Of a stretch of DNA of 64,000 bases, positions 14,680 through 62,392 are shown in pieces. A program made the translations under genes and the position numbers. The DNA comes from Felis catus (lineage: Eukaryota), in contig NC_058368.1 of the NCBI RefSeq assembly GCF_018350175.1, forward strand, positions 101,930,001 to 101,994,000, in the 5' to 3' direction. The notes below the pieces were generated by a model. The model was not told the DNA's origin, ran no database searches, and saw nothing but the letters and a program-made list of their open reading frames with translations. Within the stretch, counting starts at the first letter, position 1. Each line of letters starts with the position of its first letter.

Positions 14680-16206
14680 CTGTAAAAAGAAGAGCATTAC
14701 TGTTAGCCAGCACTTTTATTCTTGTTTTACAAGCAATATGCAATTTAATTTGGATTTAACTTCCCCATTCAGTAATCTGTAGTTCTTTCAGAATGCCAAC
14801 ATGAAGGAAATGGCAAATCAGAAGAGTCTGGTAAATGTGCATTTTAAACATAAGGCAGGCGTTATTAGATTCACCATGTGTCCAATCTTTGTTCTTGGTT
14901 CATCGGGCCACGATTCATGTCAAATCATTTATCTTATTTTTATTTCAAGACTACAACTGATACGTGATGCAGCTTAGCAGTTAGAGAAAATGATCAATAG
15001 GCCTCCTTAGCTTCTGATGAATGGGTGCTAATATAAAAATAGAGCAAAATCAACAACTACCACAGCATATACAAATAGTGATCCAGAAATGTAAGCCCAA
15101 TCCTGCGCCTGTTTCTGGGAAAGAGGGCAACGATTTGATGAGAATCTGTATTTTCCTGCCTGGGGCTTCTGATTTACAAGTCAATTTCTATTCTTAATTT
15201 ATTTTCTGATAAGGCAGGAGATCAGTACTATATTTTAACCAGATTGTGTCGTAGAGGTTTTTAAACCTGTTTTCTCTACGTGTCTAATTTGAGGTTAATG
15301 GGTGCTTTGGTTCAACGAGGGTGTCTAATGTCTCTTGTTCCCATTTGGCAAGCCAAACGTTCGTTTGGACCACAATTTGTCAGATGATTATAATCTGCTT
15401 ATATCCATTCAGGTGGCCACTGAATTGCCCACAATCTGCACCATTCATCAACTTGCCTTCTTGGTTGTTAAGGGAACTGAAAACATCAGCTCAACTATTT
15501 TTTTTCCAATCTGGTGTTTTTCATGTTTCCCCCACTTTCATCATGTTAGTTAATTTCTCTGTTTTTGCATTCACTTTTCCACTCATGGTGGAAAAATACA
15601 TCGGAGTTTCATCATGACCGCGATTTTTTTTAGCCTGCATAAAAACCTAGCTGTGTCTTTTAACCTGACCTTGACAAGGAGACTACTCAAATTTTCACAG
15701 TGAGAGATGTAGGTGGGCTCCAAAAAAACAGGCTAGTTCGGTAGCATGAGAAATGAAAGTGGAATCAGTTGCCTCTTTACCAACCAAAATTATGTCTATG
15801 TATTTCCACTATCTTCATCTATATCACACTTAGTGGAAATAAATACTTAAGTAAATACTCATAATCACTATAATATTCCTGAGGACTGTGGCTCTGTCTT
15901 CACAGATAAAACTAAGGAGAATGCTGGGCAATTATCCCACGGGTTTCATTCACAAAGACAAACGTGTAGGAAAATGTGGCCAAAGTCATATGGCTTTGTC
16001 CTCAATTAAAAAAAAAAAATGTCTTTTCTTTAAATCTTTTCAATCTGTTTTTTTAATAGTAATCCAACAAATATTTAATGGGTACTTAATTTGTTACAGG
16101 TTTTTAGATATTCAAAAGATAAAAACCACCCTGAAGAAATTCTAGAAATGGGGATTCACACAGTGAATTCAATCCCACGCCTCCTCTTCATTCCCTACCC
16201 ACTCAC

Positions 16207-16235: not shown

Positions 16236-17289
16236 CTATGAAAAATACAGGAAGCTATATAAATTACAAAATACACTCACGATGTCTTCAGCTAAGTGGA
16301 AAAAGTATGTACATTTTCCAAGAGAGAAAAACAGATTCAAAGTATATGGCTATCGCCTTCAAGGGACAGGAGTCACTATACCATCCAGGTCATATGTACC
16401 ATACCCCGTACCAAGCTATTCCCCCCTGTATATTCCGGCAAAGACAAGAGACGCTAAAAAGCTTTGATGAAGACAAGGACAGAATATCGTGGAGGTATAC
16501 AGAAGAACCAGCTAAACAATAAGACCGTCTAAGACTCCCCGCTTCAGGAGGAATGAATGTCCTCCCTAGCAAAATCTTTTCCCTGATCAAGAGACTGGAT
16601 CTCTAGGAGACAGTGGCAAGAAATAAGCTGTGGGCATTCACTTACTAAATGTTTGCTCATCATTTATTATTCATTGGACATATGTTCAATAAATATTTCC
16701 TGAGTATCTCTCATGCGCCAGGCATATGGCATTTACCAAGAATCCCTTATATGCCAGGTAATGCGTAAGTATCAGGGATTCGTCTATGTCCTTGGGAAGG
16801 AAACTGAAAATTCTAGGAAGAACTTCAAATCCATTCTTTTCCCCCAGTCAATGATGACCCAAAGCCTTCTAATTTCTGTTTAGGGAAGCCACACCCATTT
16901 TCTTGGGGTCAGTTTCCCAAATACTCCGTGGGGGAAAAAAACCCTTCCCATTATGAAAATTATACATTAAAGAAGTCAAATTGGTTATTTCCAGCTTGTA
17001 AACCACTGTTAAAGAAAAAAAGAACACCCCAAGCCTAGGGCAAATCCTAGGTGACACCTAAAAATGGAACTATTTCTGGCAGAGGATATTGAGAAGAAAC
17101 CACAAAGAAGGTAAATTTTTTGATCACCTTTGTCTCTACAGTACTGGAAACTTGTGGAAGCAAAGATTTCTCACTAAGAAAAGGAAAACTGTGAGTTGTT
17201 TCACTTAAATGAGATGAAATTTTACCTGAAAGGACTCCTTTTTCCTTTTTGAGAATTTAATTTAGGAGGCTGTTAACCCCTCCGGTATC

Positions 17290-17380
17290 AGATCTGGAAC
17301 TACCTGTAGGCACCCCCCTGTGGAAACACCGAGACAGGATATACAAGTCTCATAAAGATATAGATGTACATGCAATGGCT
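17290..17380 (+). repeat. Left arm of 91-bp inverted repeat
   Basis: Reverse complement of 18516-18606 with 6 mismatches and no gaps; flanked by ctccggtatcaga / ctccagtatcaga. Confidence 0.97.
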
Positions 17381-18515
17381 CCAGTATCAGACGTACACAT
17401 CTCGTTAAAACCACCCTGAAATTTGCTGTGAGCAATGAAATAGATCCCAAGACCAGGAAAATAGTTCAGCTATGTGACCAATCTAAAATACACACCAGGT
17501 AACAAAGAAGAAGATCCGGTCTTAATTAAAAGCAAATACCCAGTTTCCCTCTCCTATTTTTCTATATTTGCTTCTTCACTTAGTGTTTCAAAGTAGAAAC
17601 ACTTTTTTTCTACTTTCAAAGTAGAAAAACTCAGCTAGAGTTTCAAAGTAATTTTCTGATTTTCTCCATTAAGATTTCTCCTCTGTTTTTCTTTCTCCTC
17701 CTTTTTCAGACAGGTTGTCATGAGTTTGGAAGCTACTGAAAAGAGCTTAGCTCCATTAAAAAATCAACCCAACTCCCTGCTTCTCAAATATTTGATAAGA
17801 AATGTTGCCTGTGTTAAGTCTATAACATATAAATTTTTTGGAGGATTATACTATACCAATTATACTGTTCCTGATTAAAATTGTAAAATGCTTTGGGGCA
17901 ACTATGTTCACATTTCACATAAAAGCAAATAGGTGTACAAGTCAGAAATTTAACAGGGGCTTGGAACAACACATTAAAGAAGGAATCGTTCCTTGTGATT
18001 CAAGGTCATGTCCTGTTTTTTATAAATAGAATTCATTTAAAGTGATGTAAATAGCATACACTTCATGTTATATAAAGCAATGAAATATCGCATACACCTT
18101 GTATCATCTGTCTATATTGAATTTTTGCTATTTATTTCTACTAATGACATCTTTGCCAAAGGGGCAAAACAAGTTTTAGAAATGTTCACTACATTGGCAT
18201 AGCCCCTAGACATCTGCTTTTCATAATCTTGTTGCCCTACGTTATCACCAATCTCTGAAGTACATTTTAGCCAGCGTTACTGTCTGTTATGAACAACAAG
18301 AACGTGAGGCCCAGATCGGGCAGGGGGTGGCAGGAAACCGCCTTGGTTATCAACATTTCCATAGTCAAAGCGTGCTTGCTGAATTTGCTTCTTCCAGAGC
18401 TGACCACACTTCAGAATGGCACGCGGTGACCCAAGAGTTCTCTTCCCACTTTTGGGGTCTCTCCTATTTGCAGAATCTAAAACTACAGGAGAAGAGCAGA
18501 CCCATCTGGATGCAC

Positions 18516-18606
18516 AGCCACTGCATGTACATCTATATCTTTATGAGACTTCTGTATCCTGTCTCCGTGTCTCCACAGGAGGGTGCCTACAGGTAGTTCC
18601 AGATCT
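18516..18606 (-). repeat. Right arm of 91-bp inverted repeat
   Basis: Base-by-base alignment to 17290-17380; also visible as shared peptide PLHVHLYLYET...VSTGGCLQVVPDL in opposite-strand ORFs. Confidence 0.97.
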
Positions 18607-19121
18607 CAGTTATGCAAAGAAAATGCATTCCTTTACCACAAGCACTCACACTGCTTGTAAAAGGTCCTCTCTGGGAAAGAGGCACTGGAGAGATTGTTAA
18701 AAGTGAAGATGAGTTAGTGCGCTGACGGGCAGAATAGAAAGAATAAGACAGGCATATTTTAGCTTTGACACAATCCCAGAGGAACGGAACAAAAGGGAAG
18801 CGGGGTGGGGAGTGAGACAGAAAAGGAGGGAAATCGTGTGAGGGTTCCAACAGTTCCCTGTCTACCCTTAGAACAGGGGCAGGCGATTTCCCAAATGGGA
18901 CGGAGGTTCTCAGAGAGGCCTTACACACTACTGTGTCTCAAGATTGTCTGTAGGAAAGGAAGACAAAGGACAAATCCGATGGCTCCTTCTCATTCAGTGA
19001 TTCCCTCCGATCCAAGTCTGCCCTTTGGAACGTCCATATCCTTCTATTTATCTATTTGCCTCTGGGCTGTTTTGGGTAAGGACTGCATGAGCTAGAGGCC
19101 CCAGGGCGCTAATTTCGCCAG

Positions 19122-34659: not shown

Positions 34660-35680
34660 TGGACACTTGCTTTTGCCTCCCCAGCATCTATTCTCCCATT
34701 CTGGACAAGCAGGCTCCAAAATTTCACTGTATATCCAGCCATTTCCTATGCTTAGGCCATCTGTTTGGACAGGGCTCTATGCTCAGCTCCGGGAAACGAA
34801 CAATGTAGCCAAGCCCTGCCATGCTAAACGCTTCATGCCACAGGACACAAAGTGGTAGGACAGGCATGCCTTGAGACCGCAGAAGTGCGCTCTTTAGGTC
34901 CAAATGCCCGCCAACTGATGAATGGATAAAGAAGATGTGGTTTATATACACAGTGGAATGCTACTCGGCAATGAGAAAGAATGAAATCCCACCATGTGTA
35001 GCCACGTGGACGGAACTGGAGGGTGTTATGCCAAGTGAAATAAGCCAGTCAGAGAAAGACAGACACCATATATGTTCACTCAAACGTGGACTCTGAGAAA
35101 CTTTACAGAAGATCACGGGGGAAAGGAAGGGGAAAAAATAGTTTCAAACAGAGAGGGAGGCAAACCCACAGGAGACTCCTAAATAAACAGAGAACAAACT
35201 GAGGGTTGATGGGAGGCGGGGGAGAGGGGACAATGGGTGAGGGGCACTGAGGAGGGCACTTGTTGGGATGCGCATTGGGTGTTGTATGTAAGCAATGAAT
35301 CACCCCCAAAACCAAGAGCACACAGTACATGCTGTCTGTTAGCTAACTTGACAATAAATTATATTCAAACAGGAAAGAAAAGAAAAGAAATGTGCCCTTT
35401 AAACGATCTTTAACCTGAAGGGTTGTATATGGAAGAGCCAGTAAGGGCTTACCACCAGAGCAAGAGAAATGTATGACAAGGAAACCAATACAGGGCAAAG
35501 GGAGCTGAGATCGGAGAGAGATGAACAGGACCCTAACTGAGCCCCTGTGACATGTGCGGGCTGGACCAAAGTGAATTCCAAATTCATGCCAACTCAAATC
35601 TGCAATCACTACTTTCCTGTTCTGTTTTTGAGCCTGTGTAGACTGGCTTTTCTGTAACTTGTAATAGAAGGAATCTTAAT
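34660..35680 (+). mobile_element. Old MaLR LTR (MLT1H/J-like) split by an L1 insertion
   Basis: gcctccccagcatctattctcc start; ttttgagcctgtgtagactggcttttctgtaacttgtaatagaaggaatcttaattgaaa end. Confidence 0.6.
34899..35390 (+). mobile_element. 5'-truncated carnivore L1 (end of ORF2 and 3' UTR)
   Basis: aaatgcccgccaactgatgaatggataaagaagatgtggtttatatacac...ctaacttgacaataaattat plus A-rich tail. Confidence 0.95.
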
Positions 35681-41330: not shown

Positions 41331-41748
41331 CTTCCTATGGATGCCGTAAGAAATGACCAAACGCCTGAGGCCTTTCAAATGGTAAGAATTTATTTTCGCT
41401 TAGTACTGGAGGCCGGAAGTCCAAAATCAGGGTTTGGGTAGGGCTGTGCTTCCTCCGGACGCTGTAGGAGAGAATCCTTCCTTGCCGCTTCCAAATCCTG
41501 CTGGCTCTTGGTGTTCCTCCACTCAGGGCAACATCCCTCCAGCCTCTGTCTGTGTCTTCACATGGCCCTCTCCCTGGGTTTCTGCATATAGACGCCAGCC
41601 ACTGGATTTACAGCCCAACAAAATCCAGGACGGTTTCGTCTTGAGCCTCTTGATGACTTCTACCAAGACCTCATTTCCAAATATGATCATATTCTGAGGT
41701 TCCAAAGCAGGCCTGAATTTGGGAGGGATCACCGTTCAACCCACTACA
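41331..41748 (-). mobile_element. MaLR LTR (MLT1B/C-like)
   Basis: gaatttattttcgcttagtactggaggccggaagtccaaaatca...attctgaggttcc...gttcaacccactaca. Confidence 0.9.
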
Positions 41749-43016: not shown

Positions 43017-43645
43017 GGTACATTAATCAGTCTGCCAGGGCTGTCATGACAAAATACAACAGACTGAATGGCTTAAGTGATGGAAATTTATTTTCTCACA
43101 GTCCTGGAGGCTAGAAGTCCAAGATCAAGATGTTGGCTAAGGCTGGGTTCCCGTGAGGCTTCTCTCCTTGGCTTGCACATGGCTGCCTCCTCTCTCTGTC
43201 CCCCATGGATTTTTCTCTGTGTGTACATCCCCAGCATCTTTTCTTTCTTTTCTTAAAGTTTGTATTTTAATGTTTATTTTTGAGAGAGAGACAGAGCTCG
43301 AGTGGGGGAGGGGGCAAGAGATATTTAGAGGAAGACACGGAATCCAAAGCAGGCTCCAGGACCTGAGCAGTCAGCACAGAGCCTGACGCGGGGCTCGAAC
43401 TCACGGACCGTGAGATCATGACCTGATCCAAAGTCAGACACTTACCTGACTGAGCCACCCACATGCCTTCTTTTCTTATGAGGACACCAGTTCTAGGGCA
43501 CCACCCTCATGATTATCATAATTTAACCACAACCTACCTATAACCATGAATACCTTCTTAAAAGCTCTATCTCTAAATACAGTGACACTGGGAGTTTGGG
43601 TTTCAACAATTCTGGGGGCCGGGGAACATAACTCAGTCTACAACA
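43017..43645 (-). mobile_element. MaLR LTR (MLT1A-like) interrupted by a minus-strand SINE at 43240-43468
   Basis: aatttattttctcacagtcctggaggctagaagtccaagatcaag; tcttatgaggacaccagt; SINE body between. Confidence 0.9.
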
Positions 43646-56678: not shown

Positions 56679-56907
56679 TGACCTCTTATAGTGTCCAGTC
56701 AGCATAATTAATGATGACAGTAATAAACATTTATAAGTGCTATGTGTATGACACTGTGATAGGCAACTCATTGCAACGTCTAATTTAACTATCATATACA
56801 TCTGTGAAGTAAGTACTAGTATTTCCTCCACCTTGCATGTGAGAGAGTCACTGAGGTTGTGAAGGGTATAGAACGAGTGTCTGCAGGTAAGTGAAAATAT
56901 CAAGATT

Positions 56908-57141
56908 AAATTTTTAAAAATACTTTTATTTATTTTTGAGAGACAAAGACAGAGAGACAGACCGAGTGTGAGCAGGGGAGGGGCAGAGAGAGAGGGAGAC
57001 ACAAAATCCAAAGCAGGCTCCAGGCTCTGAGCTGTCAGCACAGCGCCTGACACAGAGCTCCAACTCATGAACCACAAGATCATAACCTGAGCTGAAGTCA
57101 GACGCTTAACAGCTTAACCAACTGAGCCACCCAGGCGCCCC
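56908..57141 (-). mobile_element. Can-SINE (left member of head-to-head pair)
   Basis: Full body in reverse. Confidence 0.95.
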
Positions 57142-57173
57142 TGAAAACAGTAAGATTTAAAAGCAGATCTCTA

Positions 57174-57389
57174 GGGGCACCTGGGTGGCTCAGTCGGTTG
57201 AGTGTCAGACTTCAGTTCAGGTCATGATCTCGTGGTCTGTGAGTTCGAGCCCCACGCCGGGCTCTGTGCTGACAGCTCAGAGCCTGGAGCCTGTTTCAGA
57301 TTCTAATGTCTCCCTCACTCTGACCCTCCCGCATTCATGCTCTGTCTCTGTCTCAAAAATAAATAAACCTTAAAAAAAAAATTAAAAAA
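57174..57389 (+). mobile_element. Can-SINE (right member of head-to-head pair)
   Basis: TSD aaaagcagatctcta. Confidence 0.95.
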
Positions 57390-58654
57390 AGCAGATCTCT
57401 AAATGCAGGCTCTTAACCCAAATGCTCTGCTGCCTTCAGGTCACAGATCTCCAAATCTTTTTCAGAATGTCCATCCTGACATTTAGTGCCTTCTACTGTG
57501 ACACTGGGACATGTCCAGTATTCTTGTGATGGCTTCAAGTATGGGCACTAAATACAATGGTTTTACAAAATCTAGGTTCCATAAAGTTTCCAAGATTCGG
57601 CAACTCTTTGCAAGTCATGAGACCAGACTGTTCATTTGAAAGTCAAATGATTTGTTTCACCGAGTGGCTCAGCTCCATTGAATTTCACTTCCTCCAGCAC
57701 TGTCTCTCGAGTGGCATTATCTTCTGCCATGGTTGAAACGCACACTCCTGTACGTGAAGTGTTTTACTTGTGTATATTTGCCTTGGCTAGTTCTTACTAC
57801 ATCAACAACAGCCTAAGCTGAAATTTATACTAAATTCTTTACCGCCTGGTCATTCTTCAAGGATACCATATTAGATTAGCCTTGCAAATAAGGAGGTGGG
57901 CAAGGAGAGAGCTTAAAAGTGATGTGTGCTTTGTATTAGGGTGAAATGTTGTTGGCTAATTTCTTCATTACAAAATTACAATCCATACGATGCTCATTAG
58001 AAATACTCAGCAAGGATGAGGCAAGCCAGCAGAACCAGGAGAAATGATTGCTAATAAATTTAAAATGTGAAAAAAAAAGTCTATCCGTTTGCTTAACTTC
58101 ATAAAAATACACAGGTGGTACAGTCCTTTTCATTCTCCTGCTGATTTGGAATAAGTCATTACTTGATAAAGTAGGTAAGCAACTGTTTTGGTAAGTAACC
58201 TAAAAACAATTCTGTTCCTCCAAATGTGGGGATAAAAGACTCCTTATTGTACAAACTTTTAATAAAAACTATCCGTGACTCAAAGTAAAAGCATACTGCA
58301 AACAAACTGGATTTTACATTTGATGAAGGCAATATTTTGAAGGCCCTTTTGAAACTGTAAGCTACTTATTTAGATTCATTTATCACTGTCTGTATTAAAT
58401 AGTATTTATTATACTTCCTCACACACAAGACTGCACCAGTCTCCACAAGTCATACTAGAATCACACACATACTGCAATAGGAAATACGCCTAGGGTGGGA
58501 TATAAATACCCAACTGGACCATCTTAAGGCATGACATGTGGATAATTACTGATTATCATGTATCTAGACCTTACTGTCTTGGTATCTGATGGATGACTAG
58601 TGACCATACTGTCATCAAGACTTCAGAGGGAGTTACCACTTACACTTTGTTCCC

Positions 58655-59950: not shown

Positions 59951-61705
59951 AGTGCAAGTCATAGAGTCAATGACTTTCCAAGAGTGAGCAAAGAAAAAGA
60001 AGCTTGCAAAACTTGATGTTCAATGGTGTGCAGTCTTAAAACATGAAACATCTGAGACCGTCTGTGCATCCACTGGGGTTAGCGTCCATACTCATTCACT
60101 GCCCAGCTTCAATGTACAACCGTCAAAGGAATGCACATAGTCAAATGTGTTCTCAATAACATTAATAAAGGGCTAGACATTCTATTTTGCAGAGTAAGGA
60201 CAAGCAAGAATTCTTGCTTGGATGCTTCTGTTTTCTCGTATAATTTATGAAAGCAGGTAAGGCTGGAGGGTGGCCTGCTACTTAGCCAGGGGACAAACTT
60301 ATCATTAATTCCTCACTTAAGCAGTGTCTCAAGTCCATTGTCTTTGCAATTACTTCCGAGATGAGAGATGAGAGCACAAGAATAAACTGTTCAAGTAAGC
60401 CAACTACAGCTGGAGACCATTAACAGCAAAATGGGGTATGCAGAAAAGAGCAGTGGGAGGCTGAAGTTATCTCAACTGGAGAAGCCACATGGAGGTTAAA
60501 AAATTGCACTGAATCCTGATCCACAAAGAATACCAACAATGCTTTTGGATGCTAGTCTTTCTGCCTCCAAGCATCACATGGTTTTCTGTTTATTTCATTT
60601 ATTCTAACAGTTGTGTGTGTGTGTGTCTGTGTGTGTAAAGTGGAAAACATTAGGCACAAGAGTGAAGGCCCTTTGAATTGGACACAAGATTTTAAGATAC
60701 CTCTAAAACCAAAGCCAATGAACTTCAACACACAGTGGCAAAGATGAGCCTCAGGCAAAGCAACAGAGGGGCTCAGAGGGGGTTTGTGTATGCTTTGCTG
60801 GTAGGATGAAGGCATCTCCAACACTTTAACAACACTGGAAGGTTTTGCAATTTCCCTCTAGGAAACACTGAGCGAAAATAAGATGCAACTGAACCGATGT
60901 AATGGCTACCACGAAGATATTTTACGACAGGAACTTTCTGCATGACGCGGTGGGATGGGAGGAAATGAACTCATGGGACTAGGTCAGTTTTCCTCTGAAA
61001 TGGACAGCGACCACGTTACCAGCAGCCAGTCTCACCAGCACACCCTGCTTCCCACAGTACTTGTCTTTTTCTGACTTCTCTCTCTTAGCATCCTATGCTC
61101 AAGGTCCATCCGCATTTTCTCAGACGGCAGGATAGACTTCTTCCACAGGGAAATCACATTATAATACATAAATGCATCAACTCCACATGTTGTATACCTT
61201 AAATGTATGCAATGCTATATATCAAATATGGCTCAATTAAATGGAGCTCAAATATGGCTCTTGTGCTGCCCACAAGAGGCAACCAGGTACACCTACTTCT
61301 TAGATGTTAGGGACTAAAATCCTATTCCCTAAAAACAGAGAACTCTATTCCAGTCACTACTACTTGAGATACTCATTTAGGACACACCTTTGATAAAATT
61401 ACAAGAAGAATGACAATAAAATTCCAAAAAATCTCTGGGGGTTTCAGTGATTTATATTTAATCATGTGTTCCTTTAACAAAACACTAAAACCCTGGACAA
61501 AACCATCCATCTCTCCCATTCTTGGAGAAGACCCACTGACCTTCCTCCTTCTCGGGTGAGTCCACCCACAAAACAAAACCCTGAAATGCCGAGTTATGTC
61601 AGATTTTTATATCTCCCCCCACACACTTAGAAAACCCAGCTTTCTTGTCACCAGAGGTAACTGAGAACTGATTTTGTTATCGGGTTAAAAATCTATCCTT
61701 TCCAA

Positions 61706-62127: not shown

Positions 62128-62392
62128 TTTTTTTTTCTTTTTCTTTTTTTTTTTTTGCTGTTTTATTTCTTTATTTAAAATTTTTTTAATATAATTTATT
62201 GTCAAGTTGGTTAACATACAGTATATATGGTGCGCTCTTGGTTTTGGGGGTAGATTCCCGTGATTCATCGCTTACATACAACACCCAGTGCTCCTCCCAA
62301 CAAGTGCCCTCCTCAATGCCCACCACCCATTTTCTCCTCTCCCTTGTCCCTGCATGTTACCCTCAGCAACCCCCAGTTTGTTCTCTGCGGTT
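62128..62392 (-). mobile_element. Carnivore L1 3' end
   Basis: T tail, ataatttattgtcaagttggttaacatacag..., acaacacccagtgctcctcccaacaagtgccctcctcaatgccc. Confidence 0.93.

Follow-up and report, generated by a model that had tools for sequence, protein, structure and literature searches.

A probable inverted copy of roughly 90 bases of sequence from a position 1.1 kb away, at a site with 13 doubled bases in non-coding felid DNA

A segment of some 90 bases in non-coding felid DNA is most likely a reversed copy of sequence found 1.1 kb away, and the site that received it now has 13 of its bases doubled. The copy and its presumed source form the two arms of a separated inverted repeat within a 64-kb stretch of DNA that was analyzed as a whole (here, the window). 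We consider it highly probable that the right arm served as the template for the left, through two template switches in which the return point lay 13 nt behind the point of departure. The architecture of such an event is already catalogued as type 4-1-3-2; what we describe is a known event type at a longer range than has been surveyed.

The left arm, the putative derived copy (17290 to 17380, minus strand), is the ungapped reverse complement of the right arm, the putative donor (18516 to 18606, plus strand). The arms are identical at 85 of 91 positions, with 6 mismatches and no gaps (E of ~4e-35 in a search within the window), so that the presumed insert and its template, in opposite orientations, lie on one chromosome. 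No third copy of the arm occurs in the 64-kb window, and the arm core had no matches in viral contigs. The spacer that separates the arms (17381 to 18515; 1,135 nt) contains neither a Can-SINE-like repeat nor a Pfam or Rfam match at curated thresholds.

The junctions of the left arm carry most of the evidence. As the original prediction had claimed, the arm is bracketed by two 13-mers that are alike at 12 of 13 positions, CTCCGGTATCAGA (17280 to 17292, plus strand) and CTCCAGTATCAGA (17379 to 17391, plus strand), the single difference being a CpG-type change from CG to CA at the fifth base. The direct repeat stops at 13 nt on both sides. Between these copies of the duplicated target sits the 86-nt stretch that can be derived only from the donor (17293 to 17378, minus strand). 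The claimed overlaps of the duplication with the copied sequence were both found: the final 3 nt of the first 13-mer (AGA, 17290 to 17292) also match the donor end at 18604 to 18606, and the initial 2 nt of the second (CT, 17379 to 17380) also match the donor end at 18516 to 18517. Both junctions with the donor sequence show microhomology and carry no extra bases, and each microhomology is located at the 3' end of one of the 13-mer strands; the joint chance of overlaps of 3 and 2 nt is ~0.001, a post hoc figure. Given the overlaps, the duplication measures 8 to 13 nt and the copied piece, correspondingly, 91 to 86 nt, depending on where the junctions are placed. In every such reading the net gain is the predicted 99 nt (86 nt between the 13-mers plus one 13-mer).

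To place the bracketing against a background, we used 2,267 control positions in the interval from 14 to 21.1 kb, with the true site left out. A bracketing direct repeat of at least 13 nt with at most one mismatch was found at 0 of the 2,267 positions; the longest repeats reached 12 nt at 2 positions and 10 nt at 16. Neither a poly(A) tract nor a TT/AAAA site was found at the insertion in either orientation, again as predicted, and AATAAA and ATTAAA were absent from both strands of the interval around the donor (18400 to 18750). Near the second 13-mer, one copy of an exact 14-nt direct repeat (16122 to 16135 and 17407 to 17420) begins 15 nt to the right; at an E of 0.17, this repeat is likely due to chance.

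A flush bracketing duplication is present at the left arm only, and the ends of the copy fall 2 to 3 nt from the ends of that duplication. The 8-mers that flank the right arm match at 1 of 8 positions. An 8-nt repeat, off register, does lie no more than 5 nt from the ends of the right arm; repeats of that length occur at 97 of the 2,267 control positions. Beyond the arms, the flanks are no more alike than background (18/60 and 17/60 identities), and random pairs reached their gapped scores in 176 of 260 and 252 of 261 cases. We read the left arm as a copy of the right because the shared sequence stops 2 to 3 nt from both insert junctions, which would be unexplained if the right arm had been copied later. 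The direction from right arm to left arm rests on this anatomy, and the empty allele is predicted to be 99 nt shorter with one 13-mer. The proposal that the sequence was copied in reverse from 1.1 kb away by template switching or templated break repair is thus supported, in that the flush duplication at the left arm only and the position of the copy ends within 2 to 3 nt of it both fit.

A probable course of events is as follows. The ancestor would have carried a single 13-mer at the left site and the sequence of 18516 to 18606. A 3' end at one edge of the 13-mer would have primed on the donor, ~1.2 kb off, through 2 to 3 nt of microhomology; 86 to 91 nt would have been copied in reverse orientation, and rejoining at the opposite edge of the 13-mer through the second microhomology would have left the 13-mer twice. 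On this presumed ancestor, the switch points would follow the order of return (13-mer start), departure (13-mer end), and the two donor ends, which corresponds to 4-1-3-2. Re-copying of the 13 nt would require an opened nascent duplex or a staggered break. The simplest physical route may be two nicks 13 nt apart that produce a 3'-overhang break in which either side retains one strand of the 13-mer. The 3' ends would then be AGA on the top strand and AG, complementary to CT, on the bottom strand, and these sequences coincide precisely with the two microhomologies. If the right-hand fragment were resected, the donor would be exposed on the same strand as the 3' end of that fragment, and with this arrangement fold-back priming would yield an inverted copy. 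The right-hand 3' end could thus fold back, be extended, release, and anneal to the left-hand 3' end, closing the break.

A replication fork switch or a break-induced-replication switch that re-copied the 13 nt would produce an identical sequence and would be indistinguishable here, and priming on a local transcript would give the same letters too. The weak point of the mechanism is priming on 2 to 3 nt across more than 1 kb. Longer, imperfect pairing of the 13-mer with the donor flank (microhomeology) was considered and rejected, as it did not exceed background on either side: its score was equaled at 86/928 and 148/928 background sites on the CT side and at 218/323 and 128/323 on the AGA side. 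From the observed anatomy, we infer that the insert is a neutral scar of DNA-templated copying, with the direction, the break, the enzyme, and the neutrality all presumptive.

The spacer also contains a second, scar-like cluster (17576 to 17650), ~200 nt from the left arm. Here, two 20-mers (17576 to 17595 and 17631 to 17650) alike at 17 of 20 positions surround 35 nt, and this 35-nt core is built from local pieces, among which are an 8-bp inverted copy and a 14-nt direct repeat, both perfect. Positions 17605 to 17629 form a perfect 12-bp palindrome with a 1-nt loop, the longer of only two perfect palindromes in the window (arms of at least 10 bp, loop of at most 3 nt, two-letter repeats left out); the sole other of that size outside two-letter repeats is a perfect 20-nt loopless palindrome at 60201 to 60220. 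In its layout, the cluster resembles what iterative snap-back synthesis might leave.

Published event types offer several points of comparison. In the four-point template-switch model (Loytynoja and Goldman 2017, PMC5453318), a survey of human and chimpanzee reported no "4 before 1" events among 794, an absence that a later report ascribed to a filter (PMC7954356). In that later great-ape study (PMC7954356, 2021), the type 4-1-3-2 switch, which generates an inverted plus a direct repeat, accounted together with its mirror type for 11% of 1,503 events. The event described here is like that type in being a reverse-complement copy of a local template, in having a return point upstream of the departure point that leaves a direct repeat, and in appearing as one insertion in a linear alignment; the direct repeat is the pair of 13-mers, alike at 12/13 positions and with 0/2267 controls. 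It differs from the surveyed events in that the template is 1.1 kb off, compared with the 100 nt or less searched in PMC7954356, and in that the copied piece is 86 to 91 nt, compared with a median of 12 and a maximum of 128 there; the ancestral allele is, in this case, a prediction. With 1,135 nt between the arms, well past the short-range limit of ~100 nt, the event shares the type and is not itself a short-range event.

Polymerase theta repair of breaks with 3' overhangs is described as giving microhomology-joined tandem duplications and occasional in-cis templated inserts (Schimmel et al. 2017, PMC5730883). The likeness lies in the duplicated overhang segment with junction microhomology, which here amounts to 3 and 2 nt; inserts in that report are templated by snap-back of the 3' end. 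The flanking templates given there lie within 250 bp, at induced breaks in mouse ES cells, whereas here the template is 1.1 kb away and the event is a fossil. Inverted, microhomology-flanked templated insertions have also been reported as germline variants under the name MMB-TI, with templates sought within 100 bp (PMC8421209), and 277 human inverted duplications with a median of 284 bp, most with 1 to 15 bp of microhomology, are reported from 1,019 humans (PMC12350158). Both resemble our case in having an inverted insert near its template and microhomology at the junctions; unlike our case, neither signature, as given in the accessible text of these sources, is described with a flanking target duplication.

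The templated sequence insertion polymorphisms (TSIPs) of PMC5110952 share with the insert a unique sequence and an intact donor, with a duplication as in class 1 and microhomology as in class 2. Set against these classes, the donor is local rather than distant, the poly(A) and cut site of class 1 are missing, and a duplication is present that class 2 lacks. In particular, class 2 calls for no target duplication and a distant donor, whereas this insert has a duplication and a donor 1.1 kb off; the event therefore fits neither TSIP class fully.

Template switching and end joining are described as hard to separate from junctions (PMC3638133). The distance of the donor, about 10 times beyond the 100-nt range of the ape and MMB-TI surveys and also beyond the 250 bp of PMC5730883, counts against our best reading. 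It also suggests that the 4-1-3-2 class may extend to the kilobase range, past published survey windows. We found no literature on this locus or on such events in cats; most subscription papers were out of reach, and kilobase-range cases with a duplication may well be published. As a clean example, the locus illustrates that a target-site duplication alone is no proof of a transposon, given that a template switch or break repair can leave one.

Four other explanations have to be weighed against this reading. One, which we regard as unlikely, is RNA-templated repair in cis, in which the 3' end of a staggered break primes reverse transcription on the nascent transcript of the locus. L1 ORF2p and polymerase theta are candidate reverse-transcribing enzymes. 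The geometry and the product would be the same, a primer on RNA of its own strand sense would also yield an inverted copy, and a donor 1.2 kb off could be reached without long resection. According to a review, moreover, templated insertions at induced breaks derive disproportionately from transcribed sequence and become fewer under reverse-transcriptase inhibitors (PMC5110952). In that review, however, those insertions come from distant loci and the microhomology class lacks target duplications; at the present site, no gene was identified nearby and transcription is hypothetical. A fuller version would make the insert a fossil of local RNA-templated repair in a staggered germline break, formed without poly(A) or the L1 endonuclease and belonging to a kilobase-range class that 100-nt surveys miss and that mimics transposon insertion through its target duplication, with the cluster at 17576 to 17650 marking the same fragile site or a multi-switch event. 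This version, too, we hold to be improbable; if the RNA-templated reading were true, every event of this kind would give rise to a long-range stem of double-stranded RNA with no transposon involved.

The same evidence on direction bears on the idea that an older inverted repeat was homogenized by gene conversion, or that the right arm was copied from the left, with the 13-mer arising by chance or from an earlier insertion from a third locus. Its appeal is that the direction of copying is read from anatomy. Against it stand the bracketing, which goes beyond chance in the controls (0/2267), the absence of residual homology outside the arms (18/60 and 17/60, with gapped scores at background), and, for the reverse direction, the lack of any reason for a later copying of the left arm to end 2 to 3 nt from both insert junctions. 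We judge it very unlikely.

A non-autonomous DNA transposon appears highly improbable in either of two forms. Taken as a MITE with 91-nt terminal inverted repeats, the whole segment from 17290 to 18606 is flanked by 8-mers that match at 5 of 8 positions, yet this is the best of 12 lengths tried and is far more decayed than the arms (93% identity), and the inner 13-mer is left unexplained. Taken instead as a 91-nt element that inserted twice, the left copy can be read as lying between 8-mers that match at 7 of 8 positions, in the manner of a hAT-like 8-nt duplication; the ends of the 91-nt unit are not inverted repeats of each other (2 terminal matches, 5/12), and the flanks of the right copy match at 1/8. 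Many dispersed copies would also be expected, whereas there are two in the window and, at 80% in contigs of partial coverage, the right-arm locus only, a count with which a low-copy family is compatible. An L1-mediated insertion of a non-L1 RNA by target-primed reverse transcription (a class 1 TSIP), whose donor would be local by coincidence, seems extremely improbable. The 13-nt duplication does satisfy the requirement for at least 5 bp, but the TTTT/A cut site is missing in both orientations, poly(A) is absent, the donor has no poly(A) signal nearby, and both joins to the donor show microhomology with no added bases. These three failed features largely refute it. The predicted transposon-independent origin is supported, since the transposon, retrotransposition, and gene-conversion alternatives fail the features testable here, and the templated copy from the right arm remains our preferred reading.

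We also searched public sequencing runs and contigs for the locus. The 14 best-matching runs (13 from organism A and 1 from organism B; 5 studies) carry 236 of 236 sampled words of 16800 to 19000; 7 of the 14 are possible sources of the window and the remainder comprise 7 runs in 3 studies, and, the runs having been chosen as best matches, the full match does not indicate fixation of the filled allele. A carrier of the empty allele only would be expected to lose ~13 words and score ~0.94; for this reason, we conclude that the 14 runs carry the filled allele and that the structure is not an assembly artifact. No outgroup is among these 14 runs, each of which matches at 100% of words.

None of four RNA-labeled runs, out of 24, yielded contigs that bridge the left site when compared with 16800 to 18515 at 80% likeness. 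One contig from run X18 aligned in reverse on the left arm with 5 differences, and its loose end is the outer flank of the right arm, so it derives from the right-arm locus. The right arm and its right flank are thus recovered in an independent contig (X18 record 1), in which the right arm matches the window; 244 nt from run X19 aligned with no differences, and nothing aligned from X20. From X21, a sample of ~1% of the run gave 0 reads, a result with no bearing on expression. The small-share RNA-labeled runs with contigs (X18 and X19) come from the species of the window or a very close relative. In contigs of three runs (445, 1,082, and 74 million letters), only the right-arm locus matched the left arm at 80%; this argues against a high-copy family, within a partial coverage and a filter that drops some contigs. 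A further X18 contig of 103 nt (record 3; 17879 to 17951) reads forward and then folds back onto 17879 to 17908. It is single and of low depth and is probably a library chimera.

The arms have diverged by 6.6% (95% interval, 2.4 to 14.4%), which is more than the closest SINE pairs in the window, those being 95 to 97% identical. Cat and tiger diverge by ~4 to 5%. The event is therefore likely to date back at least as far as the radiation of living cats, with a wide error, and at that age most felids would be expected to carry the filled allele and non-felid feliforms would be the informative outgroups. A hairpin had been claimed for the locus, and in folding predictions for either strand, by minimum energy as well as centroid, the two arms do pair over their full length, as complementarity dictates. 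The claim stands in part, as a predicted potential to form a hairpin. For the minus strand, 3 of the 6 mismatches turn into G-U pairs, and for the plus strand 1, too few to carry meaning.

Open frames of 94 codons (18416 to 18700, plus strand) and 62 codons (17262 to 17450, minus strand) run across the right and left arms, respectively, and share an identical arm frame. The 94-codon frame is absent from the protein collection and the 62-codon frame has no homologue there; both are probably due to chance. None of 10 exact look-ups of chance open frames of the locus returned an entry in that collection, which also held no candidate for a frame crossing the insert. A 20-nt motif had 6 matches in metagenome contigs, none with homology to the window beyond the motif, and we attribute these to chance.

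The window consists of mammalian non-coding DNA in which one short interspersed repeat, which we take to be a carnivore SINE, occurs ~40 times; the interval from 13.9 to 21.2 kb is free of it. No Rfam family reached its gathering score in the window, and a single chance-level match (E of 0.58) lay outside the arms. At curated cut-offs, Pfam gave nothing in 150 of the 179 open frames from 9 to 26 kb, with 5 weak matches (E of 0.003 to 0.009), and at an E of 0.001 nothing in 150 of 344 further open frames outside that interval. These scans cover 300 open frames in the first 38 kb, a span over which Rfam and Pfam identified no gene near the site; short exons are poorly detectable in this way and would escape detection. 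A scan for bacterial promoters and terminators was empty and is irrelevant here. No function is indicated for the locus.

Elsewhere in the window, inverted copies of ~200 nt with 78% identity (35188 to 35369 and 62184 to 62387), outside the common SINE family, are probably the ends of an older dispersed repeat. Direct copies of ~60 nt with 80% identity, 1.7 kb apart (41387 to 41446 and 43085 to 43145), are possibly old LTR fragments. At 56906 to 57395, two adjacent SINE copies lie in opposite orientation and are ~73% self-complementary across 440 nt.
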